64,000 nucleotides of DNA from the IMG/VR virus record IMGVR_UViG_3300045988_144755. One strand, 5' to 3'. Below, piece after piece: positions 2,750 through 57,565 of this stretch. Position 1 is the stretch's first letter. Each line of letters opens with the position of its first letter. A program made the translations under genes and the position numbers. The DNA comes from a virus. A model generated the notes under the pieces. It ran no database searches. It was not told the origin of the DNA and saw only the letters and a program-made list of their open reading frames with translations.

Positions 2750-3949
2750 ATGGGTAAGTTTCCAGTCACATACGATGAAAAGCTGAAGCAGCATCGGTTG
2801 ATGGTCGATGGCGAGTTGCTTGTGCCCGGCGTTGTCCCCGTGGATACGACGCAGGGCAAGGGGCCGAACCATCTTCAGGTTGATGCCGATGCTGGCTTGG
2901 CTGTCCGGTCTGAGACGTTCGTCTCGACCGATGACGGCAACCAGCTTGAAGTCGGGCAGGATGGCAAGCTCTTCGTTCGGGAAGTGTCCCCCGATTCGTT
3001 GCTGTCTCAGGACAAGAGCAACCAGCTCTCCGTTACGGACGGCATCTATTACAACGTGGGCGACCATCTGAGCGAGGACGAAAACAACCTTCTGGTTGCG
3101 CGGGACGGCAAGCTCTTCGTCGGCAAGGTGTCCGCCGTCTCTGACGATGAGGGCAACATCTTGCAGCAGGGCACCGACTCCGGCGCGTTGCTGAAGATGG
3201 ACAGCCTTGTCTCGCTCGACCTTGGGAACCGGATCGTCCTCGGTTCGGACAACAAGCTGTCCGCGCCCGTGCAGCTTTCCAAGGAAGAAGGCAACTTCCT
3301 TCGTCTCGGCAACGACCAGATGCTGTACATCAACGGCGCTGACATCGTTTCCAACGAAGCCAAGAACATGCTGGAAGTGTCTTCCAGAGACGGCAAGCTC
3401 TTCGTAAGCCGCGACAATCTGGTTCCCCCGCCCATCGTGGCGGAAGACGAAGGGAACATTATCGTCGCGGGCGGCGACGGCGGTGCCCTTCTGAAGATGG
3501 CGATGCTCGTTTCCCACGAGGAAGAGAACTATCTCATCATTTCGGAAGAGGACAACCGACTTGTCGTGCGCAGCCCGTTGTCCATGCAGGAGGGGAACTA
3601 TCTCCGGCATGGCGAGGACGGCGGCATCTTTGCTGACGGCAACGATTTGTTGTCCAATGAATCCGATAACATCCTTGGCATCTCGAAGGTCGATGGCAAG
3701 ATTTATCTGAGCCACGAAGACTATGTGACCACGGTGTCCAAGGAAAACGGCAATGTCCTTCGCCCCGGTGCGGATGGCGGTGCCCTGCTTCTCATTGAAG
3801 ACCTCATCTCCAAGGACGCCCAGAACAGCATCGTTGAAGGCAGCGACAAGCTCTTGTATGTCCGGGCCGTGTCCAAGGATAAGGGCAATGCAGTCACCCC
3901 CGGTTCCGATTTCGGGAGCTTCTTCCCGGCTGATTTCGGAACCATGTAA
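2750..3949 (+). CDS. tail fibre-like protein built from ~20-aa repeats (S-x-D-x-G-N-x-L-x-x-G-x-D-G-x-L-x-V)
   Basis: GGAG upstream. At least 13 iterations of the motif (e.g. SEDENNLLVARDGKLFV, SDDEGNILQQGTDSGALL, AEDEGNIIVAGGDGGALL). The same motif recurs in the neighbouring fibre gene 3977-5320. Confidence 0.6.
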   Translation: MGKFPVTYDEKLKQHRLMVDGELLVPGVVPVDTTQGKGPNHLQVDADAGLAVRSETFVSTDDGNQLEVGQDGKLFVREVSPDSLLSQDKSNQLSVTDGIYYNVGDHLSEDENNLLVARDGKLFVGKVSAVSDDEGNILQQGTDSGALLKMDSLVSLDLGNRIVLGSDNKLSAPVQLSKEEGNFLRLGNDQMLYINGADIVSNEAKNMLEVSSRDGKLFVSRDNLVPPPIVAEDEGNIIVAGGDGGALLKMAMLVSHEEENYLIISEEDNRLVVRSPLSMQEGNYLRHGEDGGIFADGNDLLSNESDNILGISKVDGKIYLSHEDYVTTVSKENGNVLRPGADGGALLLIEDLISKDAQNSIVEGSDKLLYVRAVSKDKGNAVTPGSDFGSFFPADFGTM

Positions 3950-3976: not shown

Positions 3977-5320
3977 ATGGCTCGTAAAACGCCGCAGGCC
4001 ATTCAGCAGTACCGTGGTACCACCGAACAGCACGCCACCTACACTGGCCCCATTGGTGAACTCACCGTCGATACCGACAAGAAGGTTGTCGTTGTTCAGG
4101 ATGGCACTACCGCTGGCGGTATCCCGATGGCCCGCGAAGACCGCAAGGTTGCTGGCGATGCGTACATCAAGGTGAACAACGCTGCCGAGGGCACCCTTGC
4201 TGCCGACCTGACCCTTACCGTGGATATGACGCAGGTCGCCGCTGACCTCGTTTCCACCGATGAAAACAACGGCCTGTCCGTAGGCACCGACAACAAGCTG
4301 TTCGCCAAGGCTCCTGATGCCGATCTCATCCTTCGCCCCAACGACAAAATCCTCCATGACGTGGACGGCAAGGTTGCCGCTGACATCTCCGTCAGCTACG
4401 ACCAGCCCTCTGGCGTTCTGAACATCATCGGTCATGACGGTTCCACCGTTGTCGCTACCGCCACTATCCCCTCCAGTACGTCCGCCCTGAAGGGCGTCGA
4501 GCTCGTGGAAGGCAAGCCTTCCGCTGACGGCGAGGAAGTCGAAGGCGACTACCATGTGAGCCTGCGCGTGGCTTATAAGCAGGGTGGTGCCCAGAAGTAT
4601 TCCGATGCCGCTGGCGTGACCTTCACCGCCACCAAGGGCACCGAGAGCGCGGGCGTCGCCATGCCTGAGTTCACCGTGCCTGAAGACGCTACGGATCAGA
4701 AGTACGAAGCCGTGTTCATGGGTCAGGAAGCGGAACAGGCCGTGGCTGCCACTGCCGCCTTCGCGTTCACCGATGGCTCCACCATGCGCCTTGCGGAAGG
4801 TATGCTGTACTTCACCCCGCAGATCGGCATCGAAGCTGGCACCTACCTGCACTTCATCTTCGTGCTGTCTGACGGCACCCTCGCCGACCTGTACATTGAC
4901 GTTACCGACCTCGTGGACGTGTACACCGCCGGACAGGGCATCTCCATTTCCGGCAAGGTGATCTCCGTCAAGCTCGGCGCTGATGGCGGCGTGAAGTTCG
5001 ACGAATCCGGCAACATCGTGGTGGACTTCACCAAGATTGTTTCCACCGATGAAGACAATGCGCTGAAGGAAGGCGCTGACGGCAAGCTCTCTGTGACGGT
5101 CGTGTCCGCTGATGAAGGGAACCTCATCAAGACGGGCTCGGACAAGGGCGCTCTGCTGACCAAGGACGACATCACCGACGCGGTGGAAGAAATCGTGTCC
5201 GGTGTCGTCACCGCCGGAACCATGTGCTCCGAGCTTCGTGCCGAAACCGCTGACAACCAGATTGTCTGCAATGCTGGCAAGATGTACGTCACTTCCGATT
5301 ACGGCACGATGGGCGAGTAA
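3977..5320 (+). CDS. tail fibre protein with Mtd_N-like N-terminal domain
   Basis: N-terminus IQQYRGTTEQHATYTGPIGELTVDTDKKVVVVQDGTTAGGIP closely resembles the N-terminus of the Bordetella phage BPP-1 Mtd receptor-binding protein (VQFRGGTTAQHATFTG..EITVDTDKNTVVVHDGATAGGFP), from memory. Internal STDENNGLSVGTDNKLF and SADEGNLIKTGSDKGALL repeats are shared with 2750-3949. Confidence 0.65.
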   Translation: MARKTPQAIQQYRGTTEQHATYTGPIGELTVDTDKKVVVVQDGTTAGGIPMAREDRKVAGDAYIKVNNAAEGTLAADLTLTVDMTQVAADLVSTDENNGLSVGTDNKLFAKAPDADLILRPNDKILHDVDGKVAADISVSYDQPSGVLNIIGHDGSTVVATATIPSSTSALKGVELVEGKPSADGEEVEGDYHVSLRVAYKQGGAQKYSDAAGVTFTATKGTESAGVAMPEFTVPEDATDQKYEAVFMGQEAEQAVAATAAFAFTDGSTMRLAEGMLYFTPQIGIEAGTYLHFIFVLSDGTLADLYIDVTDLVDVYTAGQGISISGKVISVKLGADGGVKFDESGNIVVDFTKIVSTDEDNALKEGADGKLSVTVVSADEGNLIKTGSDKGALLTKDDITDAVEEIVSGVVTAGTMCSELRAETADNQIVCNAGKMYVTSDYGTMGE

Positions 5321-5361
5321 TATCGCAATCTTATAACCCTTTAAAATAGGGGGATAATATT

Positions 5362-6216
5362 ATGGCTATGGATGGCCTGACTCCTGTGGTTGACATTGGT
5401 GGTAATGGCAATGGCGGTTGGGGTGATTGGGGCGGTGCCCTGATCGGCGGAGCTATTGGTGGTGCCGTTGGTTCCGCATGGGGCGACCGTCGCGGGAACA
5501 ACTGCTGCAATAACGGCGGCGGTTGCTGCAACAATGGCGGGAATACCGCTGCCTTTGGTGAGACGTTCATCATGGACAGCCTGAGCGGTGCCCGGAGCGA
5601 CATCAACTCCATCGGGCGTGACAACCTGATGCAGACCGCGGGCGTCCAGAATGCACTGTGTCAGGGCTTCGGTGGCGTCAACGCCACTGTGGAACGTACC
5701 GCCCTTGGGCAGCAGATTACCTCGGCGCAGGGATTCAGCGGGCTCAACACTGCGATTCTCACCAGTTCCATGCAGGGCCAGCTCGCCGCCAAGGACGCGC
5801 AGCTTTCTGCTCTTGCCGCTACCAATGCGGCTGAGATGCAGGGCCTGCGCAATACTTTCGAGCTGAAGTCCAGCATCGACAATTGCTGCTGCACCACGCA
5901 GCGTTCCATCGACAATCAGGGTTGCCAGACTCGTGAAACCATCCTTGCCGAAGGGTGCGCCACCCGTGGCGCTATCCATCAGGAAGGGGAAGCTACCCGC
6001 GCTCTGATTGCCCAGATTGACCGCGAACGCCTGCTGCGTGAAATGAACGCCAAGGATGCGGAAATCGCGTCCCTCAAGGCGCAGAACTTCAACACTGCGC
6101 TGGCGAACAACAACGCGGCCCAGACTCGTGCGGACATGCAGTCCATGTTGAACACCATCTTGAACCACATGACCTACAAGACTTCTACCACCTCTGGTGG
6201 CGGAACCACTGCCTGA
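5362..6216 (+). CDS. Gly-rich / Cys-doublet-rich hypothetical protein with C-terminal coiled-coil-like region
   Basis: GGGGG RBS. N-terminus GGNGNGGWGDWGGALIGGAIGGAVG, then NNCCNNGGGCCNNGGN, later DNCCCTTQ, CQTRE and EGCATRG. I know of no obvious family. Confidence 0.45.
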   Translation: MAMDGLTPVVDIGGNGNGGWGDWGGALIGGAIGGAVGSAWGDRRGNNCCNNGGGCCNNGGNTAAFGETFIMDSLSGARSDINSIGRDNLMQTAGVQNALCQGFGGVNATVERTALGQQITSAQGFSGLNTAILTSSMQGQLAAKDAQLSALAATNAAEMQGLRNTFELKSSIDNCCCTTQRSIDNQGCQTRETILAEGCATRGAIHQEGEATRALIAQIDRERLLREMNAKDAEIASLKAQNFNTALANNNAAQTRADMQSMLNTILNHMTYKTSTTSGGGTTA

Positions 6217-7837: not shown

Positions 7838-8827
7838 ATGCCTCGCAAAATTCCTAAGCCAGTACAGCAGTTTCGCGGGACGACTGCGCAGCACGCTACC
7901 TATACTGGCCCAGAGGGTGAAATCACCGTTGATACCACAAAGCACACGGCAGTTGTGCATGATGGGCAGACGGCTGGCGGCTTCCCTTTGATGCGGGAGC
8001 ATGACATTGTCGATGATGTGCAGATTACGGCATCTGTCGGCACTGCTGAGGCTATTTGGAATGTGTCTGTCGCTGTCGCTGATGGTGACGGTAGTTGGAC
8101 TGCTCCTTTGGCCTTGAGCATCCAAGGCAAAGTTAATACGCCCATTGCAAGGGTCGTGAACGCGCAGCCCGGTGCTGACCATCTTGGAGGCGTGCGGGTT
8201 GTCTACAAGGGGGAAACGCAGCAGGCACAGACTGGTTTCTCTCAGACTGGCGGGACGGCAAATTTCTCGTTCACTGACGGGACTACTTGTGCGGTGGTTG
8301 CTGCGGCTGAATCTGATGGGAAACAGGCTATCACGTTTACGTTCACGTTTGCCGCTACTGCCAGTGGGCCGTTCCTGTGTGTTTCTGGCGTGCGCAAGAA
8401 TGTGGCCTATGAAGTTGCCGATCCGCTCCTGTCTCAAGACCCGATGAACGCCCTTACCGCTGGCACTGACGGTAAGATTATGCTCGACGGTTCTGGTCTG
8501 GACAAGAGCTATCTTCCGCTGTATTTTCCCTTTGAAAGTGATGAAATAGTGCCGGAAATCCATACGTTCTTCCCTGACCATTGCAGGGTCATTCTGGTGG
8601 ATGGCCTTCAGTCTGATGGAACGAGCGTGGATGCTCTGGGCATCACGGTTCAGCTCGATGGGGACAGTGAGGGCACCTCGGCTGTGACGCTCAAGAATGG
8701 GCAGATTGACAGCGATGGCGCTTTTGCGGGAAAGGCTGTAGTCATTCGGTGTTCTGGGCGTACTACGGAGACGTGGGTTTCTGCGTTGCTTCGTCTGACC
8801 CCCACAATGCTGGCGTCCGATTTATAG
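7838..8827 (+). CDS. tail fibre protein paralog with Mtd_N-like N-terminal domain
   Basis: N-terminus VQQFRGTTAQHATYTGPEGEITVDTTKHTAVVHDGQTAGGFPLMREHD is nearly motif-identical to the BPP-1 Mtd N-terminus and paralogous to 3977-5320. The C-terminal part is unrelated to the paralog. Confidence 0.65.
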   Translation: MPRKIPKPVQQFRGTTAQHATYTGPEGEITVDTTKHTAVVHDGQTAGGFPLMREHDIVDDVQITASVGTAEAIWNVSVAVADGDGSWTAPLALSIQGKVNTPIARVVNAQPGADHLGGVRVVYKGETQQAQTGFSQTGGTANFSFTDGTTCAVVAAAESDGKQAITFTFTFAATASGPFLCVSGVRKNVAYEVADPLLSQDPMNALTAGTDGKIMLDGSGLDKSYLPLYFPFESDEIVPEIHTFFPDHCRVILVDGLQSDGTSVDALGITVQLDGDSEGTSAVTLKNGQIDSDGAFAGKAVVIRCSGRTTETWVSALLRLTPTMLASDL

Positions 8828-8850
8828 CATTCACGCACGATAAGTTTGTA

Positions 8851-8893
8851 AGTTCCCGATTTTTTTACCCAGAAAAGTCGGGAACTTTTTATT
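8851..8893 (+). terminator. rho-independent terminator
   Basis: Stem AGTTCCCGA / TCGGGAACT with a loop, followed by TTTTTATTT; lies after the stop at 8827. Confidence 0.6.
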
Positions 8894-8909
8894 TATATTT
8901 GGAGGGTTT

Positions 8910-10493
8910 ATGGACAGTTTGCTTTGTGGTTATCTGCGGTTTGGTAAGCCTTTGGAAAAGCAAAGTTTGCTTTTTGTAGTAGATACTGAAGCTACTACAT
9001 CAGGAGGAGTACAAACGGCAAACCCAGTTCATGCTTTTCCTAGGCTATCTAGCGGTAATTTATCTACCGCTACTTTAACTATAGATTGGGGTGATGGTAC
9101 TTCGACAACTATTCCAAAGAATACACCATACGATAATAATTACTTTACTGATTATTCCACGCATACATATGAAGCTCCCGGAAAATATATTGTAACTGTA
9201 GAGGCGTATGATTTTTCTTCTTGTTCCTTTGGCGTAAATTCTAATACGTCTGCCGCATTTTCAAAATTAAAACTGTGGCGGGATACAGTAATTAGCATAG
9301 GCCCAGAAGATGCAGAAGAATATTCTTTGCCTTGTATGAAGAGCGATTTTTCATATGCTTTTGCTAGTTGTATGAAATTGACCAAAGTACCATTCGGATT
9401 ATTTAAGAATAATCCGATGATTACTGATTTTTATAGTGTATTTTATTTTTGTACAGCATTAACTGAAATTCCAGAAGATTTATTCGCGTATACTGATAAA
9501 GTTACTAATTTATCTTTTGCTTTTTGTAATTGTATAAAATTGACAGGGCCTATCCCGGAAGGGTTGTTCGCTAATAATCCCGCTGTAACGTCATTTGACA
9601 ATATATTCCAGCAATGTACAGAGTTAACAGGGCCTATCCCGGAAGGGTTGTTCGCTAATAATCCTGCTGTAACGTCATTTGACAATATATTCCAGCAATG
9701 CACAAAGCTATCAGGGTCTATCCCGGAAGGGTTGTTCGCTAATAATCCTGCTGTAACGTCATTTAACTACACATTCTACGAGTGTTTAGGATTAACTGGT
9801 ACTATTCCTGAAGGGCTGTTCGCTAGTAACCCTGATGTAACGTCATTTGATAATACATTTGTGCGCTGCGCAGGGTTGTCAGGGTCTATTCCTGAAGGGC
9901 TGTTCGCCAATAATCTTGCTGTAACGTCATTTGATAGTACATTCATGCAATGTGCAGGGTTAACAGGGTCTATCCCAGAAAATTTGTTCGCCAATAACAC
10001 TGCTGTGACTTCATTTGATTCTGTATTTTATGCTTGCTACTCGTTAGCAGGAGATATTCCTGAGAATTTATTTATTCATAATAATGAAGTAACTTCATTT
10101 GCTGGTGCATTTTTTGCTTGTAGAGAATTAACAGGGGCTATTCCTAGCGGTTTATTCTCTAGCAAGACTAAACTAACTTCTGTTGAACGTGTGTTTGAAG
10201 GATGCACAGGATTAACGGGGGCTATTCCTGAAGAACTTTTTGCTAGTAGTCCTTTAATCACTTCATTCAGTTATGTGTTTTCTGAATGTACAGGGTTAAC
10301 GGCGGTACCTAAAGCACTTTTTGAAGAAAATATAAATGCTGTAACTTTTATTGAGACATTTTATGGTTGTTCTGGTATAACAAGTGAAGTTCCTGAGCTG
10401 TGGATTTCACACCCGGATGCGACAGGCACATACTGCTATTTGCGCTGCACCAATGCCGCCAACTACGCTGATATTCCCGCTGATTGGAGATAA
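8910..10493 (+). CDS. BspA-type leucine-rich-repeat surface protein (tandem ~28-aa repeats)
   Basis: GGAGGG RBS. Repeats of L(T/S)G(P/S)IPEGLFANNPAVTSFDNIFQQCT..., as in BspA-type LRR proteins. The region is markedly lower in GC than its flanks. Confidence 0.6.
   Translation: MDSLLCGYLRFGKPLEKQSLLFVVDTEATTSGGVQTANPVHAFPRLSSGNLSTATLTIDWGDGTSTTIPKNTPYDNNYFTDYSTHTYEAPGKYIVTVEAYDFSSCSFGVNSNTSAAFSKLKLWRDTVISIGPEDAEEYSLPCMKSDFSYAFASCMKLTKVPFGLFKNNPMITDFYSVFYFCTALTEIPEDLFAYTDKVTNLSFAFCNCIKLTGPIPEGLFANNPAVTSFDNIFQQCTELTGPIPEGLFANNPAVTSFDNIFQQCTKLSGSIPEGLFANNPAVTSFNYTFYECLGLTGTIPEGLFASNPDVTSFDNTFVRCAGLSGSIPEGLFANNLAVTSFDSTFMQCAGLTGSIPENLFANNTAVTSFDSVFYACYSLAGDIPENLFIHNNEVTSFAGAFFACRELTGAIPSGLFSSKTKLTSVERVFEGCTGLTGAIPEELFASSPLITSFSYVFSECTGLTAVPKALFEENINAVTFIETFYGCSGITSEVPELWISHPDATGTYCYLRCTNAANYADIPADWR
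9541..9792 (+). repeat. Three near-identical 84-bp tandem repeats inside the LRR gene (more degenerate copies continue to about 10300)
   Basis: Units 9541-9624 and 9625-9708 differ at only a few positions; the third unit 9709-9792 has a diverged 3' end. Confidence 0.8.
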
Positions 10494-10522
10494 GGTATAC
10501 CCATAACCAAGGAGCGATTGCT

Positions 10523-10693
10523 ATGGATTCATCCCCGATTGAGCCCCCTGTTCAGTGCCAGCCTGTAGTTGTTCAGTGTACGTGCTGCCAGTCGGTGCGG
10601 CAGAATGAAGAGCTTGACCCAATCGGGGGTGTTTTCCTTGTTCTGTTTATAGTGTTTGCCGCTTCTCTGGGCGTATGGTTACATAGGAGTTGA
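10523..10693 (+). CDS. small putative membrane protein (57 aa)
   Basis: GGAG RBS before the ATG at 10523; C-terminal hydrophobic segment VFLVLFIVFAASLGVWL. The track ORF from 10484 has no RBS. Confidence 0.35.
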   Translation: MDSSPIEPPVQCQPVVVQCTCCQSVRQNEELDPIGGVFLVLFIVFAASLGVWLHRS

Positions 10694-10708
10694 GGCTGCG
10701 AAATAAAA

Positions 10709-10741
10709 GCTCCCTACCCGATGAAGGTAGGGAGCTTTTTT
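10709..10741 (+). terminator. rho-independent terminator
   Basis: GCTCCCTACC-cgatgaa-GGTAGGGAGC followed by TTTTTT. It lies immediately upstream of the silent cassette and of IR-L. Confidence 0.75.
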
Positions 10742-10762
10742 ACGGGCCTCGCCTTTTTCATA

Positions 10763-10812
10763 GGCGGCACCTCCACGGTATCGTTCAGTGTGAGTGCCTC
10801 GACATATGCGCT
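10763..10812 (+). repeat. IR-L: 50-bp inverted repeat (49/50 match to 12128-12177), encodes GGTSTVSFSVSASTYAL in frame
   Basis: ggcggcacctccacggtatcgttcagtgtgagTgcctcgacatatgcgct matches the reverse complement of 12128-12177, with a single T/C difference at 10795. Confidence 0.85.
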
Positions 10813-10822
10813 CACGTTAACA

Positions 10823-11561
10823 TCCCCGACCAATGTAAAGACTAGGGTTCCTGAGCCTGTTACTTTTAATGTAACAAAAAATAATAAACCTTATACTGGC
10901 CCGGTGCAGCTTACTTCTAATATCTCACAAGTACCTGCACAAACTATTAATGCACAAAATGGTGTTGGGTCTACGACTATTACTTTTACAGTACATGGAG
11001 ATTATATTATTTATTTGTCTGTTGGCGATTTGACTACACAATATAATTATTCGACTACAGCTTTAACTTACGAATATGTTAATCTTGGTGACGATATAAC
11101 TGGATGGACTTGCCCGCCATCTGCTCCTTTGTATCTTTATTGGCATGGCGTGCGTGTTTACCAAGCTAATGGCCCGGATACTACATCAACACGTATTCAA
11201 GCAAGTAATGGTAAAGTATATTACAAAGGAGTACACCAATCAATGTATAGTTACTCTATTGCAGAATATGACCATTAATGGCGCGTCCACCACGATTGCA
11301 GGGGAGGCGAAGCCCGGCCCAACCTATCTGTATGATAATGAGCATGTTTGGACTGTTTCCAGAACTAACCTTCCCGGAGGGATGGAGTTCAATTCGGTCT
11401 TTTGTATTTGGGGTGGTCAGTCTATTGCAAATACTATGGACTTGGATGCTACTTCGGTGGTTGGTTCTGATGGATATACATACCTTCGCGGGGAATATCA
11501 GGAACAAGAAGTGAGTGGGTCTACCACAAACAGCCATTACTCCATAGCCAGACAAGAATAA
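10823..11561 (+). pseudogene. silent alternative C-terminal cassette for the Ig-repeat fibre (no start codon or promoter, low GC; frame break near 11265-11278)
   Basis: Frame A (10763-11278) continues the IR-encoded peptide for ~150 codons to a TAA at 11276. Frame B (ATG at 11268, to 11561) encodes MTINGASTTIAGEAKPGPTYLYD...YTYLRGEYQ...YSIARQE. This is homologous to the C-terminus of the - strand gene (GNGASTTIAGEAKPEPVYKYDD...HTYLRGELK...YAIARQV). The track ORF starting at 10721 begins inside the terminator hairpin. Confidence 0.5.
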
Positions 11562-11568
11562 AACAGTT

Positions 11569-11595
11569 CCGCCCGCTACATTTAGTAGCGGGCGG
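11569..11595. terminator. bidirectional hairpin between convergent coding ends
   Basis: CCGCCCGCTAC-attta-GTAGCGGGCGG, 11-bp perfect stem, lying between the + cassette stop (11561) and the - gene stop (11602). Confidence 0.55.
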
Positions 11596-11601
11596 ATTCA
11601 T

Positions 11602-14600
11602 TTATACCTGCCGTGCTATGGCATATTTATGTGTTCTTGTGTACGACTGGTCATTCGTTTCTTTCAGTTCTCCACGAAGATATGTATGACCATCAATACC
11701 CTCGGTAGGAGTATCAGTATCTCCCCGACCGCCATTATAAGCGACCATCTGTCCTTCATAGAACAATATGACAAAAGATTCCCCTATACTACCGTCAGGA
11801 GACCAAGTACTCTGCCATGTCCAACTATTGCCATCATCATACTTGTACACAGGTTCGGGCTTTGCCTCCCCTGCAATCGTGGTGGACGCGCCATTGCCAG
11901 AAGCATCAGTAAAGGACACGGTATACGAACCTCCATTCGCATTGGTGCTGGTTAAAGTTTCAGTGAATTGCCCTGCCGAATTGGTGGCCTTCGCCCCGGT
12001 GGTGCCGCCAGAAAGACCGCCAAAGCTCGTTACGCTAACCCCGCTGGTGATGGGGTTGCCGTTGCGTTTGCAAGTGAAGGTGACGGCTGTAGCGGTATTG
12101 TACGCCAGCGTGTTCGGGCTTGCCGAAAGCGCATATGTCGAGGCGCTCACACTGAACGATACCGTGGAGGTGCCGCCGCCAAACGAGAGAGTCACGGTTT
12201 TGCTGCCTATGGACGTTGCCGTCAGGGAGACGGTGAACTTGCCACCGGATGCTGTTGCCGAGGCAGGGCCAGAAAGCCCGGAGCTGTACGACAGACTGAC
12301 GGAGCCAGCGTAGTTGGCGTTGTTCTTCTTGACCGTGAAGGTGACGGAGTCGGGGTCGTTGGTGTAGAGCTGAGAGATGTTTGCCGAAGCAGCGTAAGTA
12401 GCGGCTGCCACCGTAAATGTTGCCGTTGCTGACCCACCGCCGAACGAGACGGTGACGGTTTTATTGCCCGTGGTGGTAGCGGTCAGCTTGTTCGTGCATT
12501 TGCCGTCAGTGGCAGTTGCCGAGGTGCTGCCGGAAAGCCCAGAGGGAAGCGAGAAGGTAACGGCACCATCATAAGCGACGTTGTTCCGCTTCACGGTGAA
12601 CGTCACATTGGAAGCCAAATCTTCCGTCAGGGCTGTGGGCGAAGCCGATACTGTGTATGTAGCTGCCGATACGGTGAAGGCAATGGCGTCTGAGCCACCG
12701 CCGTAGGTCAGAGTGATATTGCCTGCTGTAGTTCCGCTTGCTGCCACTGAGATGGTAAACTGACCAGAAGCGTTTGCCGTGGCAGATGCCGGGCCACTGA
12801 GGTTTCCGCTGTATTTGATGGTGACAGCCCCGGCATAAACTGCGTCGTTCTTCTTCACAGTGAAGGTGACGGACTTGCTGTTGTAGGCTTGGACGCTGGT
12901 GCTGTTGGCAGAGGCCGTGTAGGTGGCTGCCGAGATGGTCATGGTATCGGACGCATTCCCGCCGCCGAAGGTAGCTTTGATGGTACCCGTTCCGGTGGCG
13001 TCTGCGGATACGTTGATGGTGAACTGACCAGAGGCGTTCGCTGTGGCGGATGCCGGGCCAGAAAGCCCACCGCTGTACGTCAGCGTCACAGCGCCAGCGT
13101 AGGCCGCATTGTTCCGCTTCACGGTGCCAGTGATGGACTTTGTTTCATCAACCCGGATGGTGGTAGGACTGACGACGAAGGAGTAGGTGGACGCTGTGAC
13201 GGATACGGCGTCAGTCGCTGACCCACCACCAAAGGTAAACGTCAGGGTCTTGTTCCCGGCTGTGGTGGCGGTAGCCGTGAGTTTTACCACACCATCGGTT
13301 GCCGTAGCGGATGTGGTGCCGGAAATGCCCGTGGGATACTTCACGGTGACGGCACCGGAATAGTTCTTGCCATTGCGTTTCACGGTAGCGGTGATGGTGC
13401 CGGAGACGTTGGTCTTGAGCGCAGCCGAGGTGATTTCAGCGGCATAGGTCGCAGCCTGAGTATCCACCGTGTAGGAGGCGCTTCCGCCGCCGAAGGTGGC
13501 TTTCACGGTGCCGTCTGCGGTTCCGGTTGAGGTCAACGTGATGCTGAACTGCCCAGAGGCATTGGAGGTAGCCTTTGTAGGCGTACCAGTGATGCCGCCA
13601 GAGTAGGCCAGCGTAACGGCCCCGGCATATGCCTTGCCGTTGCGGGTAACAGTGATGGTGTAGTCAGCTTCCTCGTAGGCGGTGATAGTCTTGCTGCTGG
13701 CGTTGATGGCATACGTGGCGGCAGCAACGGTGATGTCCGCCGTATCCGTCCAGTCATCAACCTTGACCGTCAGCGTTTCCGTTCCGGTATCCTCATAGGT
13801 CGCCTTGTACGTGTACTTGCCTGCGGAGAATGTGACCGAGGTGCCGTTGATGGTGCCCTTTCCGGCGTATGCCTTGCCGTTCCGGGTAACGGTCACAACG
13901 GTGGAACCCGCCTCATACTGCGTAAATTCATCGTTGGAGATTGCCAGCGTGTAGGTAGCGGCGGTTACGGTCGCGGACAGTTTCACGCTGCCGCCACCAT
14001 AGGTTGCGGTGATTGTCCCGCTGCCCACGGTATTGCCTGTGATGGTGAACGTCCCGGTGCCGGAAGAGTTGGTGGTGACTTTCGTATCACCGGATACGCC
14101 GCCGGAGTAGGCCAGCGTGATGGCACCAGCATAGGCTTTTCCGTTCCGTTTTGCGGTGATTGTGACTTCTGCGTCTTCAAACCGCTGAACAGTTTTAGGC
14201 GTGATGCTTGCCGTATAGGTGGCTTCAGTGACTGTGACGGATACAGCATCACTGACAGTTCCGCCCCCGAAGGTGGCGCTGATGGTAGACGCGCCTGCGG
14301 TAGCGCCTGTGACGGTGATGGACACGAGGCCGGACGCATTCGAGGTTGTGGATTTTGTGCTGCTGGTAATGTTGCTGTTATGCGCGAGGGTGACGGCTCC
14401 CTGATACGGTTTTCCGTTTCGCTTGACCGTGAAGCTGACGGCCTCAGATTCGTATTCCTGCACCGTGTAGTCTTCAGCTTCAACGCTGTAGGTTGCCGCA
14501 GCTACAGTGACGGACAGCGTGATGGTTTGCCCATCAATGACCAACTTCAGGGATTGCTTCCCGGAAGTATTGTACGTTGTCGTATAGGTGGCCTTGCCGT

Positions 14601-15006
14601 TAGTGAAGGTAATGGCCTTGCCAGCAAGGGTAGCGGCACCGGAGTAGGCTACGCCATTCCGTTTCGCAGTAATCGTAAGGGTGCCCTGTTCGTACTGCGT
14701 GAACGACCCGGACGAAGTTGCCGTGTATGTCGTTTGTGCGACGGGGTAGGTTTGATCCAGAACGGTGGTACCATTTACTTTTACAACGAGGGGATAATCT
14801 CCGGGAGCATCATGGGGGCCGAGGGTGACGTTTGCTACCCCGTTGGAGTTCAGAGTGTATTCCACCCCATTAACGCTGATTTTTTTTCCGGGAATGAGAA
14901 GGTCATTATCATAGAGGGTGATGGCGCTTGTGACCGTATCGCCAGTATACTCTGGAAGCCCATCTACACTGGCGATGTAGAGATGGTCTGTGTAGTACCC
15001 GTACAT
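11602..15006 (-). CDS. giant Ig-like (Big-type) repeat fibre/adhesin, 1134 aa, about 11 tandem ~90-aa domains
   Basis: AGGAGAG RBS. Repeated domain pattern ...TVKRNGKAYAGAVTLAYSGG(V/L)SG...SGQFTI...G.GTI.ATFGGGS... N-terminal about 100 aa are a non-repetitive domain. The C-terminus carries the IR and a TIAGEAKP...YLRGE...IARQV tip. Confidence 0.7.
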   Translation of the reverse strand: MYGYYTDHLYIASVDGLPEYTGDTVTSAITLYDNDLLIPGKKISVNGVEYTLNSNGVANVTLGPHDAPGDYPLVVKVNGTTVLDQTYPVAQTTYTATSSGSFTQYEQGTLTITAKRNGVAYSGAATLAGKAITFTNGKATYTTTYNTSGKQSLKLVIDGQTITLSVTVAAATYSVEAEDYTVQEYESEAVSFTVKRNGKPYQGAVTLAHNSNITSSTKSTTSNASGLVSITVTGATAGASTISATFGGGTVSDAVSVTVTEATYTASITPKTVQRFEDAEVTITAKRNGKAYAGAITLAYSGGVSGDTKVTTNSSGTGTFTITGNTVGSGTITATYGGGSVKLSATVTAATYTLAISNDEFTQYEAGSTVVTVTRNGKAYAGKGTINGTSVTFSAGKYTYKATYEDTGTETLTVKVDDWTDTADITVAAATYAINASSKTITAYEEADYTITVTRNGKAYAGAVTLAYSGGITGTPTKATSNASGQFSITLTSTGTADGTVKATFGGGSASYTVDTQAATYAAEITSAALKTNVSGTITATVKRNGKNYSGAVTVKYPTGISGTTSATATDGVVKLTATATTAGNKTLTFTFGGGSATDAVSVTASTYSFVVSPTTIRVDETKSITGTVKRNNAAYAGAVTLTYSGGLSGPASATANASGQFTINVSADATGTGTIKATFGGGNASDTMTISAATYTASANSTSVQAYNSKSVTFTVKKNDAVYAGAVTIKYSGNLSGPASATANASGQFTISVAASGTTAGNITLTYGGGSDAIAFTVSAATYTVSASPTALTEDLASNVTFTVKRNNVAYDGAVTFSLPSGLSGSTSATATDGKCTNKLTATTTGNKTVTVSFGGGSATATFTVAAATYAASANISQLYTNDPDSVTFTVKKNNANYAGSVSLSYSSGLSGPASATASGGKFTVSLTATSIGSKTVTLSFGGGTSTVSFSVSASTYALSASPNTLAYNTATAVTFTCKRNGNPITSGVSVTSFGGLSGGTTGAKATNSAGQFTETLTSTNANGGSYTVSFTDASGNGASTTIAGEAKPEPVYKYDDGNSWTWQSTWSPDGSIGESFVILFYEGQMVAYNGGRGDTDTPTEGIDGHTYLRGELKETNDQSYTRTHKYAIARQV
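12128..12177 (-). repeat. IR-R: 50-bp inverted repeat partner of 10763-10812, inside the Ig-repeat fibre gene
   Basis: Its reverse complement ggcggcacctccacggtatcgttcagtgtgagCgcctcgacatatgcgct encodes FGGGTSTVSFSVSASTYAL in the - gene frame. Confidence 0.85.
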
Positions 15007-15607: not shown

Positions 15608-17113
15608 ATGGCTTTCAGATATGATATGTCCCCTACTGGCAAGGCGTTCCATGAGTGCGACAAATACGTAAAGATGCTCTGCGGGCCTTACGGGTCTGGG
15701 AAGTCCTGCTGTTGCGCTATTGACGTGCTGTCGTATGCCTGCGCTCAGGCGGTGGCCCCGGACGGGTATCGGTATGTCCGCGTCGGTGTCGTGCGTTCCA
15801 CGTATCCTGAGCTTTTCTCCACGACGCGGAAATCCTTGCTTGAGGTTTTGCCGGAATCGTGCGGGACGATTACGACAGGCACATCCGGGACGCAGGGGCT
15901 GTACATAATCCCGCTGGTGGACGGGACGAAAGTCCACCTTGAAATTGATTTGGTTGCCGCTGCCAGTGTCGATGACGAATGGCGCTTGCGTTCAAGGAAC
16001 TGGACGTTCGCATGGATGAACGAAGCCAACGGCTGTATCGAAGAAGTGTTCATGATGATCACGCAGCGTATCGGGCGCTACCCTTCCGATGATTTGGGAG
16101 GTGTGTCGTGGGGCGGGGTCATTATGGATTTCAACCAGCCCGCGCCGGGGACGTGGGTGGACAACTTTATGCGGAACCCGCAGCCAAACTGGGCAGTGTT
16201 CCGCCAGCCGCCAGCCGCGTTCAAGCATGAAGATGAGCATGGGAACATTACGTATACCGTCAATCCCAATGCGGAGAATTTGCGGAACCTAGGGGCAAAG
16301 GAAGAAGGCGACCCGGAAGATTTTCCTGCCGAGGAGCGGGGCAAGCGGTACTACAGGAACCAGATCGACGCCCTCATCAAACAGGGGCGGTATGATGTCG
16401 TCGATAACCAATACTGCATGTTGGATGTCCCCGTGGTTGACGGGAAGCCAGTCTATCCGGGGTTCAGCAAGCGGAAGCATGTGGCCCCGCAAGTCCTTGA
16501 GCCCCTCATGTTCCATGATATTATCATCGGCATGGATCAATCCGGCATCCATCCGGCAGCGGTTATCCTGCAAAACCAATACGGAAAGTGGTGTGTCCTC
16601 GACGAACTCTACGCCAATAACGAGGGCTTTGAGAATTTCCTCTATGGTATGCTGGTTCCCCGGTTGCGGGAGAGGTATTCGACGAATCCGATAGTTGCCG
16701 CGATTGACCCTAGCAACCAGCGGGATTCGTGGACGGCGACGACGCCGAAGGAACGTCTTGCCGAGGCGGGCATTGCGGCTGTGACCGAATTGACCAACAG
16801 CCCCAAAATCCGTATCCAGATGGTAGAGCACATGCTCAACTTGGATACTGGCGGTTTGCTGGTAAGCCCGAACTGTGAGCTGCTGGTCAACGGGTTTGTC
16901 CATGAATATCGGTATCGCAGGCTTCGGGGTGGGGGTTCCATCGGTGCGGCCTATACGCCACAACCGGAGAAGAACGACGCAAGCCATGTTCATGATGCGT
17001 TGCAGTATGCGGCGCTGCTCATCTACAGGGATGCGACGAAGGATGACCCGGCAGCGGAAGCCCTTGCAAAGAAACTTTCGGATAAACGGCGCGTACTGCG
17101 GAAGGTCGTATAA
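15608..17113 (+). CDS. terL: terminase large subunit
   Basis: Walker A CGPYGSGKS; Walker B-like WMNEANG. C-terminal nuclease-domain acidic motifs (IIGMDQS, HVHDALQYA). GGAG RBS. 501 aa. Confidence 0.85.
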   Translation: MAFRYDMSPTGKAFHECDKYVKMLCGPYGSGKSCCCAIDVLSYACAQAVAPDGYRYVRVGVVRSTYPELFSTTRKSLLEVLPESCGTITTGTSGTQGLYIIPLVDGTKVHLEIDLVAAASVDDEWRLRSRNWTFAWMNEANGCIEEVFMMITQRIGRYPSDDLGGVSWGGVIMDFNQPAPGTWVDNFMRNPQPNWAVFRQPPAAFKHEDEHGNITYTVNPNAENLRNLGAKEEGDPEDFPAEERGKRYYRNQIDALIKQGRYDVVDNQYCMLDVPVVDGKPVYPGFSKRKHVAPQVLEPLMFHDIIIGMDQSGIHPAAVILQNQYGKWCVLDELYANNEGFENFLYGMLVPRLRERYSTNPIVAAIDPSNQRDSWTATTPKERLAEAGIAAVTELTNSPKIRIQMVEHMLNLDTGGLLVSPNCELLVNGFVHEYRYRRLRGGGSIGAAYTPQPEKNDASHVHDALQYAALLIYRDATKDDPAAEALAKKLSDKRRVLRKVV

Positions 17114-19128
17114 TGGCTGAAGAAGCTACTGATTCCACTCGCATCAACTGGTTGCGGGAGATTGAGGACATCCCGAAGAATGCCGTTGACCCTCTGGCTG
17201 ATGAAGTCATGCGGCGGTTCAATGGTGCCGTGGGGTGGCAGTCAACCGAACGGGTGAACGGCAAGAGCCTGCGGCAAGTCCTCCAGAATTGTTGGGAACA
17301 GCAGAACGGTGTGCTGAACTGCGCCGATGCACAGGCGGCGGAAGCTCTCGGTGTCGATGTCGTTATCAACATGACCGCGTTGAAGACGGACACGGCGAAC
17401 GCATTCCTTGCCGAGTCTTTGACTGCGGGCGATGCCAGCCTTCCTTGGACTATCATGCCGACGCCCCGCCCGGACATTTCCCCTGTGGCGAAAGAAGCGG
17501 TGTTGCAGGAAGTGAAGCGCCAGCTCTTTTCTCAGGGTGGGTACCAAGACAGCATGGCGTTGGTTTCCCATATCCAGCAGGCAAAGCAGTTGATGCGCCG
17601 CAGGGAAGAAGAGAAGGCAGCCAAGGCCGCGGATGAAATGATGCTGCTCATTGAAGACCAATGTGCCGAGGGCGGCTTCTCACGGGCGCTGACGGACTTT
17701 CTGCAATACTTCCCGGTCTATCCTTTTGCCGTTTTCGCCGGGCCTTACATCACGAGGGCCACCAAGCTGACGTGGGGCAAGAACCGTCCCCGGCTGAACA
17801 CTGAGGTTTTCCCCGTGTTCCGGGCAATCAGCCCCTTTGACTTCTGCTATTCGCCGGATTCCCCCGACACGCAGCGGGGGACGTGCGTGTTTACCCGGAC
17901 GCTCTGGACGCGGAAGCAGCTTCTGGATGCAGCGAAGATGAAGTCGTACCTGCAATCCAATGTGCTTGACGTTCTTGAGAATGCCGATGTCAATCCTGAT
18001 TTCAACCTGAACTGGCTCAGTCGGGAGCCGGATTCGTATCGGCGCAGCCTGTCTCTGTGGTCGTCCAATGTTGCCCCCATTGAAGTCCTGACGCACTATG
18101 GCGTGATGTCGGGACGGGAGCTCAGGTCGTATGGGTTCCATAATCTGGAAGACACTGAGTTCTACAACTGCGAGATTGCGATGGCGGGCTACCGGGTGAT
18201 TCAGGTGAAGGTCGTCAGCGACCCCCGGATGCAGACGCGGCCCATCTACACGGCGAGCTTCTACCGCACGGGCGGCGACCGCATTGCGGGCGACGGCATT
18301 GCGCAACGCATCCGGGACATTGAGCGGGCCTATCATTCCTGCCTGCGCTACCTGATGCGGAACGCGGCGAATGCGTCTGCGCCCTTGTGCGAGGTTGACT
18401 ACCGCCGGATGATTGCGCACATGAGCGATGAGGACTTGGGCCATGTCGTTCCGGGCCTGATGTACATGGTGGATTCCGATGCGAGCAACAGCGGGAGCGC
18501 CGCTATGCGGTTCTTCAACATCCCCTCCAATATCCCGGCCTACGCGCAGTTGATGGAAATGTTCATGCAGCTTGGCGACCGGGTGACGAACATCCCGGCA
18601 GCCCTGCACGGGGAAGCCGTGGGCAGCGGTGCCATGCGGACGTTCCGGGGCATGTCCATGTTGCAGGGGAATGCGACGAAGGCCCTCCATGCGGCGGTGA
18701 CGAACATTGCCAACGGCGTGTTCATCCCGCTTGGGGAAGCATTGTTCAACACGAACATGCTGTACTCGAACAACATGGACATCAAGGGCGATGCGCAGAT
18801 CATCACCAAGGGCGCTGAGGGCTTGCTCCAGAAGGAAATGCAGAAGCAGTCCGCAATGGAGATATTGCAGGTTGTCGGTTCTGTCGGCGCGCAGTTGGGG
18901 CAGATGGTGAACATTGCCCCTGTCGTGTCGTGGAGCATCAAGCGGCTGGTGAGCGCAATGGGCGTGCCGGATGATGTCATTGCCCAGATGGAACAGCCGA
19001 TGATGCCGCCGGGCATGTTGCCGCAGGGCGGTGCCCCGGTGTCTGGAGACAATCCGAATCCCAATCCGGCACCGCCGTCACCTACGGGCGCTGGTGTTGT
19101 TGCCGATGTTTCGGGGGGAGAAGCATGA
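17113..19128 (+). CDS. putative portal protein
   Basis: TAATG overlap with terL; 671 aa with a Pro/Gly-rich C-terminal tail. Assignment is by position only. Confidence 0.45.
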   Translation: MAEEATDSTRINWLREIEDIPKNAVDPLADEVMRRFNGAVGWQSTERVNGKSLRQVLQNCWEQQNGVLNCADAQAAEALGVDVVINMTALKTDTANAFLAESLTAGDASLPWTIMPTPRPDISPVAKEAVLQEVKRQLFSQGGYQDSMALVSHIQQAKQLMRRREEEKAAKAADEMMLLIEDQCAEGGFSRALTDFLQYFPVYPFAVFAGPYITRATKLTWGKNRPRLNTEVFPVFRAISPFDFCYSPDSPDTQRGTCVFTRTLWTRKQLLDAAKMKSYLQSNVLDVLENADVNPDFNLNWLSREPDSYRRSLSLWSSNVAPIEVLTHYGVMSGRELRSYGFHNLEDTEFYNCEIAMAGYRVIQVKVVSDPRMQTRPIYTASFYRTGGDRIAGDGIAQRIRDIERAYHSCLRYLMRNAANASAPLCEVDYRRMIAHMSDEDLGHVVPGLMYMVDSDASNSGSAAMRFFNIPSNIPAYAQLMEMFMQLGDRVTNIPAALHGEAVGSGAMRTFRGMSMLQGNATKALHAAVTNIANGVFIPLGEALFNTNMLYSNNMDIKGDAQIITKGAEGLLQKEMQKQSAMEILQVVGSVGAQLGQMVNIAPVVSWSIKRLVSAMGVPDDVIAQMEQPMMPPGMLPQGGAPVSGDNPNPNPAPPSPTGAGVVADVSGGEA

Positions 19129-23910: not shown

Positions 23911-24411
23911 ATGTCACAGGTAGTCCCTCAGCCGCTTGAACGGAGTACCCCGGACAAGGTGTTTGATTTACCCAACGACGATGCCCGGATAGCGTACCTC
24001 AAATTCCTTGGCGCGAAGAATGTCGATCCCCCCTTGCCGCATTCCACACACTTGCGGAACAAGGTCAACGGGCGCATTCTGCCTTGGGATGAAATGTTGG
24101 CGGAACAGCGCGACATTATGGAATGTTGCGATGTTTATGGAAATACAGACCCTGCTGTCTGGGGGCCGCAAGTCATTGATGCTGCGGGCGTAGATACCGA
24201 TGAAAAACGCATCGCTCTTGCCAAGGCGCAGGAGGTTCTTTTGAGCCAGAGCGCCGGGCTTACGGAAACGCATCGGCTGGAGGACGCTCCGAGGAGCCTG
24301 TCCCCTCAGCCGATGGCGCTTCCCAATGATGCCGTCCCCTATGACGACATTGAATCCCTTATTGACCACGGTGCGGTGAAGAACCTGATAGCGATGCTGG
24401 AGGACAAATGA
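23911..24411 (+). CDS. hypothetical protein
   Basis: Second ATG (23911) has better GGAG spacing than 23896. Confidence 0.45.
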   Translation: MSQVVPQPLERSTPDKVFDLPNDDARIAYLKFLGAKNVDPPLPHSTHLRNKVNGRILPWDEMLAEQRDIMECCDVYGNTDPAVWGPQVIDAAGVDTDEKRIALAKAQEVLLSQSAGLTETHRLEDAPRSLSPQPMALPNDAVPYDDIESLIDHGAVKNLIAMLEDK

Positions 24412-25097
24412 TCGCTTCGTCGGTTATCGCTGAAGTTTCCCATGACCTCAACGACCAAGTGCCGGGGTACGAATACACCCGTTGGAGCGTGGAGCAATTG
24501 CACTCCTACCTTCGGGAAGCCCTTGTCGCTGTAAGCCACCAGTTCCAGAAGGAATTTGTGGGCATGGTCATTGTGGAACTGGAACCCGGCGGTGACTGGC
24601 AGAAAGCCTGCGATTGTTCCAGCATCGTGCGGATTGTCGGCGAGTCCACGAAGTCCGGCAAACTGCGTCGGTACCTTCGGAAGATTGCCGATGTGGAAGC
24701 CGACCTCTGGACGGGGGACATCTCGCACTGTCCCGCACGGGGGAAGGACTACGCCATTGATGGGTATTCCATCAGCGTCGTGGACGACAGCCTGTTCCGG
24801 GTCTATCCCCCGGTGCCGCCGAACGTGACCAAGTATGTCCTTGTCGAATGCTTCAAGGAGCCTGACGGGTACAGCTTGGATACGGACGTACCGGAGAAGC
24901 TGGTGGCGATGGTGAAGCAATGGATGCTGTACCGTGCGCTGTCGGTGGATTCGGAAAACAACCCGACGATTACGGAGCTGGCAAACACGCACCAGAAGAC
25001 GTACTTCAATTTGATGAAGGCGCTTCTGGAAGCAGAAGAACGTGAGAAGATGCTCTATGATGATTTACGAGCCGTTCAAAAAAGTGCCGATAAGTGA
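24408..25097 (+). CDS. hypothetical virion protein
   Basis: ATGA overlap with the upstream gene; 229 aa. Confidence 0.5.
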   Translation: MIASSVIAEVSHDLNDQVPGYEYTRWSVEQLHSYLREALVAVSHQFQKEFVGMVIVELEPGGDWQKACDCSSIVRIVGESTKSGKLRRYLRKIADVEADLWTGDISHCPARGKDYAIDGYSISVVDDSLFRVYPPVPPNVTKYVLVECFKEPDGYSLDTDVPEKLVAMVKQWMLYRALSVDSENNPTITELANTHQKTYFNLMKALLEAEEREKMLYDDLRAVQKSADK

Positions 25098-40586: not shown

Positions 40587-41191
40587 TGCAGATTGAATAC
40601 TTCGCCACCTATCTGACCGACAGGCTTGAGCCTGAAGGTACGGACTTGCCGATCTGCAACTCAGCGGTTGCCGATCTGCTGGCACTTATGCCGGATGAGG
40701 ACGACTATATTTACCTTGCGCTCAAGGGGGATTCGCACTATGAAGTTGTGCGGGCGTACAACGCTGGCGGTACTATCCTCATTGAGCGGGCACAGGAAGG
40801 GACGACTGCCGTACTGCATCACTACGGCACATGCGTTTCCGCAATCTCTCCTCTGGTTGCGGCTGTAGTGAAAGACTTGATCTGCAACTATACCTGCTGT
40901 GAGGAAGAGTGCCCGTGCGACCCCGTCGCATTCGGCGGCGCATCGTTGCCCGACTTGCAGGAGGGTGTCGCATGGGAAGGTGCCGTGGTATTCTCCGGCG
41001 ACCTGCCCATGACCATCGGCATCAGCAATGCGCCCGGCTGGATGGAGGCCACGACCTCGAACAACATCATCAAGCTGTCCGGTACGCCGACATCCAGTGA
41101 GGACGTACACTTCAGCGTAGCGGCAACCAACTGCAACGGAACGCACATCGTTACGGAATCGCTTACCATCAATGCCAAGCAACTCCCTTAG
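40583..41191 (+). CDS. hypothetical protein, last gene of + strand operon
   Basis: ATGA overlap; Cys cluster [13 protein letters not shown]. Confidence 0.45.
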
Positions 41192-41243
41192 CATTGTGTA
41201 ACATATTCTTATCATGCAGGGCCAAACCCTCATGACAAGAAAA

Positions 41244-41285
41244 CCCCCGTGTAGACTTCGCTCCAGCTACACGGGGGTCTTTTTG
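41244..41285 (+). terminator. rho-independent terminator of late operon
   Basis: CCCCCGTGTAG-12nt-CTACACGGGGG followed by TCTTTTTG. Confidence 0.7.
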
Positions 41286-41353
41286 CCCGCATGGGTGAAT
41301 CACCAACTTGGGTGATTTAATTAAGTTTTTTAAATTTGCGGTAAATTACCGTA

Positions 41354-41485
41354 GCTGATTTTATTGACAATTTTTAAACCCGGCGTTTCACCGGGTTTAA
41401 ATAATCTTGCAGGGTTACACTATAAACACACCCCGTTTACTTCAATCAGGTTATCGGGTGATTTTATTGATAATTTAACTGAGCG
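41354..41485. repeat. 18/20-bp direct repeats TGATTTTATTGA(C/T)AATTT (41354-41373 and 41466-41485), plus GGGTGAT motifs at 41291, 41309 and 41464
   Basis: Seen directly in the AT-rich junction between the convergent operons. Confidence 0.6.
41376..41398. terminator. bidirectional hairpin AAACCCGG-cgtttca-CCGGGTTT flanked by T and A runs
   Basis: Perfect 8-bp stem with TTTTT 5' and AAA 3'. Confidence 0.5.
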
Positions 41486-56558: not shown

Positions 56559-56572
56559 CTCTCCTCCTTTTC

Positions 56573-57550: not shown

Positions 57551-57565
57551 GATGTACCTCCATTG

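Follow-up and report, generated by a model that had tools for sequence, protein, structure and literature searches.

A low-GC stretch in the fibre region of a human-gut phage: an allele-swapping leucine-rich repeat gene beside an invertible store of fibre tips

The 64,000 nt of virus record IMGVR_UViG_3300045988_144755, referred to below as the window, are most of a human-gut phage genome of about 67 kb. Near their start, at approximately 8850-11900, lies a stretch of low GC (guanine plus cytosine) content, which is a composite of two elements: an ancestral, dispensable leucine-rich repeat (LRR) locus that swaps alleles, and an invertible store of fibre tips. It contains the LRR gene, a small membrane-protein gene of native GC, a terminator, two tip cassettes and the low-GC active tip of a convergent fibre gene. 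The LRR allele is imported, while the locus itself is old and syntenic, its alleles being exchanged by recombination at conserved gene ends. We give about even weight to the interpretation that the stretch is a hypervariable host-recognition region and that the LRR protein is an accessory adhesin displayed on the virion, a role in host interaction that is suggested by sequence. An original prediction, made from the letters of the window, had described the feature itself largely correctly; its interpretation as a horizontally acquired, rapidly evolving host-interaction module is supported in part. GC at third codon positions is designated GC3, open reading frames ORFs, ribosome-binding sites RBSs, and immunoglobulin-like domains Ig. 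The following features were defined:

8850-8887, plus strand: terminator-like hairpin, 17-bp stem and T-run (free energy -23.8 kcal/mol, z-score -5.9)
8910-10493, plus strand: LRR gene, 527 aa, from the ORF scan
9447-10370, plus strand: in-register array of 84-bp (28-aa) units within the LRR gene
10523-10693, plus strand: small gene behind the RBS AAGGAG, with a native GC of 0.515; its Cys-rich product of 56 aa has a membrane segment at the C-terminus
10705-10741, plus strand: intrinsic terminator, 14-bp stem and T-run (free energy -26.8, z-score -5.0)
10763-10812, plus strand: outer inverted-repeat arm, encoding GGTSTVSFSVSASTYAL; partner at 12128-12177, complementary at 49 of 50 positions
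10813-11278, plus strand: silent cassette A, an Ig-like domain and a tip, with no RBS or promoter
11277-11561, plus strand: silent cassette B, an inner inverted-repeat arm (11277-11353; partner arm 11819-11895) followed by a tip
11568-11596, both directions: hairpin terminator separating cassette B from the convergent fibre gene
11602-15006, minus strand: fibre gene, 1134 aa, Big_1/invasin-like Ig repeats, product starting MYGYYTDH
11602-11895, minus strand: active tip C of the fibre gene

Within 8850-11900 the GC content was 0.415, compared to 0.568 in the rest of the window. Calculated in 3-kb windows, GC averaged 0.561 with a standard deviation of 0.034; the lowest value of the 64 kb, 0.412, was found in the window beginning at 8801 and lies 4.4 standard deviations under the mean, while the lowest value outside the stretch was 0.523. 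GC is therefore not uniform, and the predicted drop is real, but the backbone has 56-57% GC and not about 60%, and the stretch extends to approximately 11.9 kb instead of 11.6 kb. It is not homogeneous either, since the small gene and its terminator at 10.4-10.8 kb show a backbone-like GC of 0.52. The LRR gene has a GC of 0.386 and a GC3 of 0.28, versus GC3 values of 0.56-0.75 in the flanking late genes. Cassette A is similarly poor (GC 0.37, GC3 0.23), followed by active tip C (GC 0.46, GC3 0.39) and cassette B (GC3 0.45). The deficit sits at synonymous sites, and the composition there is foreign. GC3 values of 0.23-0.49 mark the LRR alleles and tips as imports from a lower-GC pool, the backbone having 0.56-0.75.

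The history of the locus was deduced from eleven contigs sharing a backbone at 96-99% identity. Besides the window, these are six IMG/VR contigs (L001-L006), a Logan contig (L009) and three contigs of metagenome collections (L023-L025). In L001-L006, L009 and L023, the LRR gene occupies the same place on the same strand, directly 3' of the second of two genes with an Mtd_N fibre-anchor domain and before the fibre switch. The gene itself was found in the following states:

527-aa allele, number of units unchanged: L001, L002, L003 and L006
348-aa allele, 45% identical: L004, L005 and L023
8940-10443, plus strand: segment of the window replaced in the 348-aa allele
304-aa allele, without two blocks of four 28-aa units, the aligned positions being 94% identical: L009
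deletion of the LRR gene, the 56-aa gene and both silent cassettes: L025 (ERZ1034065 contig, 29.6 kb)

In the 348-aa allele, homology at the DNA level stops at 8939 and resumes at 10444, so that the first 10 and the last 16 codons are in common. It is the prevalent allele; its cluster counts 58 members, on contigs of up to 68.8 kb. In L025, positions 3001-3183 contain an in-frame fusion ORF of 60 codons composed of the LRR start and first 13 codons, approximately 16 diverged codons, and the last 30 or so codons of a fibre tip. Because the gene is deleted in this phage, it is dispensable. The LRR gene thus diversifies by whole-allele replacement through recombination in its conserved first approximately 30 nt and last approximately 50 nt, by in-frame gain or loss of 84-bp units, and by complete loss. 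Three alleles and one deletion among phages with 98-99% identical backbones justify the term rapidly evolving. The predicted horizontal acquisition is supported by the foreign GC3, but not in the form of one island bracketed by two terminators: the locus is syntenic in the relatives, so the stretch did not arise by one recent insertion event.

A more distant lineage (L010, L019 and L020), with a holin 51% identical to that of the window, harbors three tandem LRR paralogues. These are also GC-poor, with 0.436 in L010 and, in segments of 500 nt, about 0.44-0.49 in L020. L020 has a further kilobase with a sharply low GC of 0.36-0.37 (4501-5500) immediately before its first paralogue.

The low GC could also be intrinsic to the gene family, either through the residue composition of its N-, F-, I-, T- and K-rich repeats or through selection for slow translation. 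The repeat consensus is indeed rich in residues with AT-rich codons, and all LRR alleles (GC 0.386, 0.396 and 0.457) and paralogues of both lineages are below the backbone. Yet we regard this explanation as improbable, because the deficit affects synonymous sites (0.28 versus 0.56-0.75), because homologues in Bacteroidota of 52-56% GC reach GC3 values of 0.61-0.67 with the same repeat consensus, because GC3 varies widely among the alleles themselves (0.28 versus 0.49), and because the unrelated fibre tips show the same bias, down to 0.23 in cassette A.

Repeats and shifts in composition are typical sites of mis-assembly, and one contig, L024, ends inside the LRR gene. A chimeric contig, joining the gene of a low-GC organism to a phage, is nevertheless so improbable as to be negligible: four independent IMG/VR contigs and the Logan contig, from other samples, show the same junctions, allelic versions keep the same gene ends, and the LRR ORF is intact and preceded by an RBS.

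The array of 84-bp units is less regular than predicted. Tandem Repeats Finder reported a period of 84 with 5.7 copies and 80% matches. Instead of three near-identical, perfect repeats, only the units starting at 9531 and 9615 are alike (94% identity, including stretches of 38 and 35 nt without a mismatch); the identity of the unit at 9699 to these two drops to 81-85%, and the remaining ones show 40-77%. The suspected changes in copy number were detected between alleles, the 527-aa and the 304-aa forms differing by eight units, but not among the four 527-aa contigs, which suits changes on an evolutionary timescale. Since 84 is a multiple of three, gain or loss of units stays in frame; phase variation by frameshift was rejected for this reason. 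The alleles vary in length, yet all ORFs are intact, and an on/off contingency based on repeat number is not what was found.

The second element of the stretch is the store of fibre tips. Two silent cassettes, A and B, are present where a single one had been predicted, and their existence is substantiated by contigs in which they are inverted into the fibre gene. The partner arms of both lie within the convergent fibre gene, and the repeats are 40-50 nt of coding sequence, the 40-nt cores of the inner pair being located at 11277-11316 and 11856-11895. The repeats bracket cassette A, with its Ig domain, and cassette B, a tip only, which face the active Ig domain and tip C of the fibre. The whole segment 10763-12177 is inverted in L002 and L006, and the fibre gene carries cassette A in L002, L003 and L006. 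In L004 and L023, the inner segment has the opposite orientation and a fourth tip is active, while in L003 and L005 the cassette region is further rearranged. Cassettes are thus exchanged into the Ig-repeat fibre gene by inversion at two nested pairs of inverted repeats, giving at least three or four alternative tips, and both orientations occur in nature. No homologues of cassette A were found outside this phage. A serine or tyrosine recombinase gene was not detected in the window and the 1.6 kb before its start, neither as a Resolvase or Phage_integrase domain in the scanned ORFs nor as a serine-recombinase active-site motif in six frames; the sequence covered is all but approximately 1.1 kb of the phage genome, beyond the window end. 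Two candidates were rejected: the ORF at 10721-11278, whose ATG lies inside the terminator loop and has no RBS, and a diversity-generating retroelement, of which only Mtd_N domains were found and no reverse-transcriptase domain in the scanned ORFs; the fibre repeats are inverted and recombine by inversion.

The predicted ORF of 527 aa was recovered at 8910-10493, with the RBS GGAGGG 3 nt 5' of the ATG (4 nt from G8906 to A8910). Its product begins with a 17-aa N-terminal peptide, MDSLLCGYLRFGKPLEK, a PKD/Ig-like domain with a WGDG motif (about residues 18-105) and a linker; about 13 units of 28 aa and a C-terminal cap follow. Membership in the leucine-rich repeat superfamily is established by agreement of the unit pattern, phmmer, modelling and structural comparison. 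Phmmer searches of PDB yielded the plant LRR receptor kinases MIK2 and GSO1 (2e-8 to 1e-7), designed LRRs and variable lymphocyte receptors. An AlphaFold2 (AF2) model built from 60 homologues had a mean pLDDT (predicted local distance difference test score) of 86, with more than 90 in the solenoid, roughly residues 170-527. Foldseek searches with this model identified Toll5A, ERL1 and GARP in PDB as well as 52 viral matches at E <=0.001, many of them named LRR or BspA-family. The term BspA-type used in the original prediction is correct only in the loose sense of NCBI naming, in which DUF285 proteins are called 'BspA family LRR surface protein'. The Pfam match is to DUF285 (PF03382; 32.6 bits, cutoff 25, E 7e-8), and LRR_5 (PF13306), which is BspA-type in the sense of Pfam, was not matched at E <=0.01. 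Most homologues also carry PF03382 and a minority PF13306. The PKD profile PF00801 scored 21.6 bits against a cutoff of 23.5; the motif IDWGDG is present, AF2 placed beta strands in the region at pLDDT 50-86, and homologues carry PF18911. NCBIfam gave solely a weak, sub-threshold PKD-like match.

Searches for cellular homologues resulted in 1904 matches, surface proteins of 540-920 aa that are 35-45% identical over about 90% of the phage protein. Proteins such as P0001, P0012 and P0004 share with it the PKD-like domain (WGDG), the 28-aa units of the type Cxx-LTG-xIP-xxLF-xNN-xVTxF and the C-terminal cap (CT..NY..IP..WK). They differ at third codon positions, the closest ones having the GC3 of 0.61-0.67 mentioned above, and at the N-terminus. 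In the cellular proteins it is either type-IV-pilin-like or made up of a lipoprotein-like signal with Mfa-like, BACON or other domains, none of which the phage protein has. One homologue of 539 aa (P0004; L007 8001-9620), on a 29% GC contig of a spore-former with CotJ genes, has a type-IV-pilin-like N-terminus (KGITLIALVV) before the same core of PKD-like domain and LRR, which suggests a pilus-tip adhesin version of the family.

The N-terminus of the phage protein, MDSLLCGYLRFGKPLEKQS, contains no hydrophobic h-region and no lipobox in context, as judged without a dedicated signal-peptide predictor. Having no signal peptide, the protein cannot reach the cell surface unaided, and the export signal and surface anchor of BspA-like cell-surface adhesins are both lacking. 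Residues 4-7, LLCG, were considered as a lipoprotein motif and rejected; the Cys is at position 6 with no signal peptide before it, and the alternative peptide MYGY has no Cys.

This short N-terminal peptide links the LRR protein to the fibres. Two types exist, MYGY... and MD-x-L-x-CGY..., and each heads both LRR and Ig-like fibre proteins, with the pairing swapped between the two lineages. In the window, the LRR protein starts with MDSLLCGY and the Ig fibre with MYGYY. In the distant lineage, the three LRR paralogues start with MYGYR, MYAYL and MYGYR and a protein of 210 aa with MYGYL, while an Ig-like, fibre-like protein of 195 aa starts with MDRLICGY. The sites are as follows:

window 8910-8960, plus strand: peptide of the LRR protein
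window 15006-14960, minus strand: peptide of the Ig-repeat fibre
L020 5974, 7766 and 11427, plus strand: peptide sites
L020 10619 and 11316, minus strand: peptide sites

An RBS precedes nearly all of these starts, with no more than a weak match (taggat) at the third LRR paralogue. When the DNA pattern of RBS plus MD-x-L-x-CGY was searched in 2.9 million IMG/VR contigs, eight were found, all of them from these two lineages. The N-terminal motifs are absent from 185,579 GTDB genomes.

Several lines of evidence argue for a virion-displayed adhesin. The LRR gene is located inside the fibre cluster on the late strand, between the Mtd_N and the Ig-repeat fibre genes, an arrangement syntenic in all relatives; its N-terminal peptide is of a type common to the Ig-repeat fibres; DUF285-type LRRs form the distal part of annotated phage tail proteins; and the fibre tips, which determine specificity, have the same anomaly in composition. 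Short N-terminal anchors also have a precedent in T5 pb1, which is anchored by residues 1-40 (PMC12750041).

Transcription signals allow another interpretation. The two predicted terminators were confirmed as strong hairpins with T-runs, and a third, at 11568-11596, was detected in addition. The first is positioned between the Mtd_N gene at 7838-8827 and the LRR gene and is kept in all relatives (alignment of six loci). The terminator at 10705-10741, missed by a pattern scan and found by direct reading and folding, ends the unit of LRR and small gene and insulates the promoterless cassettes 3' of it. The small Cys-rich protein of this unit, 56-63 aa across lineages and with an N-terminal half of the type PVQCQPV..VVQC.C, trails the LRR gene or genes; the 56-aa protein is 50-52% identical to that following the LRR genes in the distant lineage. 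The gene is absent from L005 and L025. The gene and its homologues are located at:

window 10523-10693
L020 9418-9609
L010 11169-11360

LRR and small membrane protein could accordingly be an autonomous unit of moron-type, non-structural cargo, acting in the infected cell or after lysis, for instance by excluding superinfection, by binding a host factor, or in soluble form as an adhesin or decoy. Bracketing by two hairpin terminators, the foreign composition of the LRR gene, its dispensability in L025, its pairing with the small protein also in the distant lineage, and its best phage family match, which has no assigned function, all suit this interpretation. We consider it possible, if rather unlikely. 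A moron should have its own promoter and terminator and be expressed from a prophage; terminators are present, but no promoter fits between hairpin and RBS, and no integrase or repressor domain was detected among approximately 60 ORFs scanned, in a phage that looks virulent. Furthermore, a protein without a signal peptide would not get to the cell surface by itself, and neither the N-terminal peptide common to fibre proteins nor the location inside the fibre gene cluster would be expected of cargo.

The proposal of a virion-displayed adhesin has to be weighed against a number of observations, which are listed here together. The terminator-like hairpin is only 22 nt 5' of the LRR start codon, and a promoter-like site was not found between 8828 and 8909. 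The N-terminal peptide is very short, with AF2 pLDDT <50 for residues 1-14, and LRR solenoids are normally monomeric, unlike classical trimeric fibres. Deletion of its gene in L025 is as compatible with cargo as with an accessory fibre. The best phage family match, PHROG 9915 (E 7e-101), has no assigned function, and the 'tail protein' labels of the two GenBank phage proteins with similar LRRs, described below, are annotations and not experiments. No donor of the low-GC allele was found, the nearest cellular homologues (43% identical) having a native GC of 0.53-0.54. In scans of GTDB genomes, neither the large terminase nor the N-terminal motifs of the LRR protein revealed relatives, a prophage copy or a host, and a search with the holin returned the holin alone, which has no match among GenBank phages.

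If the LRR protein is an accessory adhesin on the virion, the following scheme may be proposed. The gene would specify a non-essential protein with a core of PKD-like domain and DUF285/BspA-type LRR homologous to bacterial surface adhesins. A phage-specific peptide of 17 residues would have taken the place of the N-terminus by which bacteria export or anchor such proteins (pilin-like, or a lipoprotein signal with fimbrial/BACON domains). Read-through of the upstream hairpin would let the protein be made together with those of the late tail genes, though in reduced amounts, and it may dock on the virion by its N-terminal peptide. The variable face of the solenoid could then bind a surface ligand, on the bacterial host or in gut mucus.

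A more general possibility, put forward tentatively, is a plug-in system in which a peptide of 10-17 residues (MYGY... or MD-x-L-x-CGY...) is enough for the virion to display unrelated, monomeric modules of bacterial adhesins, here BspA/DUF285 LRR solenoids and invasin-like Ig rods. The phage would then capture bacterial surface adhesins by swapping the export signal for a tag, which would account for the repeated import of low-GC alleles, the expansion of paralogues and the easy loss of the gene. Were the peptide a docking tag, it would offer a simple means of engineering the specificity of phages. The host range of gut phages and their adherence to mucus are set by a few hypervariable and mostly unannotated genes, and the locus offers a natural allelic series in one backbone, with three LRR alleles, one deletion and three or four fibre tips.

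Further features of the window concern the phage and its probable host:

1453-2082: gene for a protein of 209 aa directly upstream of the holin gene, putative endolysin, without Pfam match
2079-2672: holin gene
3977-5320: first Mtd_N fibre-anchor domain protein
7838-8827: second Mtd_N protein, directly upstream of the LRR gene
17113-19128: SU10-type portal
24408-25097: SU10-type adaptor

Related contigs have sizes of 66.7-68.8 kb, and one is labelled human gut metagenome. Domain scans revealed in addition a collagen-repeat protein, PolA, an SNF2 helicase and a DUF927 primase. With these replication proteins, and with integrase and repressor domains not found, the phage looks virulent. No tRNA genes were found, and DNA searches of GenBank phages with the low-GC stretch and 25 kb of the window gave no match. 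The product of 1453-2082, probably an endolysin, has an identity of 45-49% both to hypothetical proteins from crAss-like phages of Bacteroides (crAss002, jaberico and DAC16-23) and to proteins of Pseudoalteromonas, Leptospira and Bdellovibrio phages; its similarity hints at a Gram-negative host of the Bacteroidota. Since, moreover, the nearest cellular relatives of the LRR protein are encoded on Bacteroidota contigs of 52-56% GC, the host is probably a high-GC species of this phylum.

Three observations were made elsewhere in the window. The PolA gene is apparently split (50532-53454, minus strand) into a PolA fragment (50532-51509), an ORF for an HNH_3 endonuclease (51572-52153) and another ORF (52264-53454), which looks like insertion of a homing endonuclease. 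The early/replication arm contains a trio of genes for a CobT/VWA protein, a DUF3150 protein and an AAA_5 (MoxR-like) ATPase (54849-58510, minus strand). A second, smaller dip in GC, 0.486 over 1 kb with negative GC skew, is located at 41000-42000, the junction of the plus-strand late and the minus-strand early genes.

Comparisons with known systems place the two elements of the stretch differently. Tip exchange corresponds to that of Mu G, P1 C, Min-type systems and the R64 shufflon, in which promoterless C-terminal fibre cassettes are likewise joined to a constant part by inversion. Here, two nested repeat pairs and at least three tips are present, in both orientations in nature, and unlike in Gin/Cin/Min systems and the shufflon, the cognate recombinase gene was not found in the region searched. 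For the LRR protein, the closest annotated counterparts are gp35 of Klebsiella phage ST16-OXA48phi5.4 ('tail protein I', 1008 aa), adjoining the tail collar fibre, and gp128 of Escherichia phage tuntematon (Phapecoctavirus; 'tail protein', 890 aa), adjoining tail fibre genes. Both have a DUF285-type LRR in their distal part, with 34-36% identity over 70-80% of the query. There the LRR forms part of a large tail or baseplate protein, whereas here it stands alone, with 527 aa and a 17-aa leader. The best of the viral structural matches, over the whole chain, was obtained with the metagenomic BFVD entry A0A8S5RYD6, 'Leucine-rich repeat protein [Myoviridae sp. ctNQV2]' (538 aa; template modelling score 0.72, 32% identity, E 1e-26). 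This entry, Bacillus phage G gp353 and PHROG 9915 are phage LRR relatives without assigned function. LRR/BspA-like proteins are widespread in phages, with 52 structural matches in BFVD, none of which has an assigned role, and a functional study was not found in the literature on LRR tail fibres and BspA in phages. In bacteria, a DUF285 protein of Lactococcus lactis contributes to adhesion to mucin and plastic (PMC5071367). Duplicated DUF285 repeat proteins of suspected horizontal origin, as here, are also known from the giant virus Kratosvirus quantuckense (AaV), which differs in being a eukaryotic giant virus with 38 DUF285 genes and no link to tail fibres (PMC10720644). Phage LRR/BspA-like proteins and invertible fibre tips were therefore already known; new are the N-terminal peptide shared by LRR and Ig-repeat proteins and the natural allelic series.

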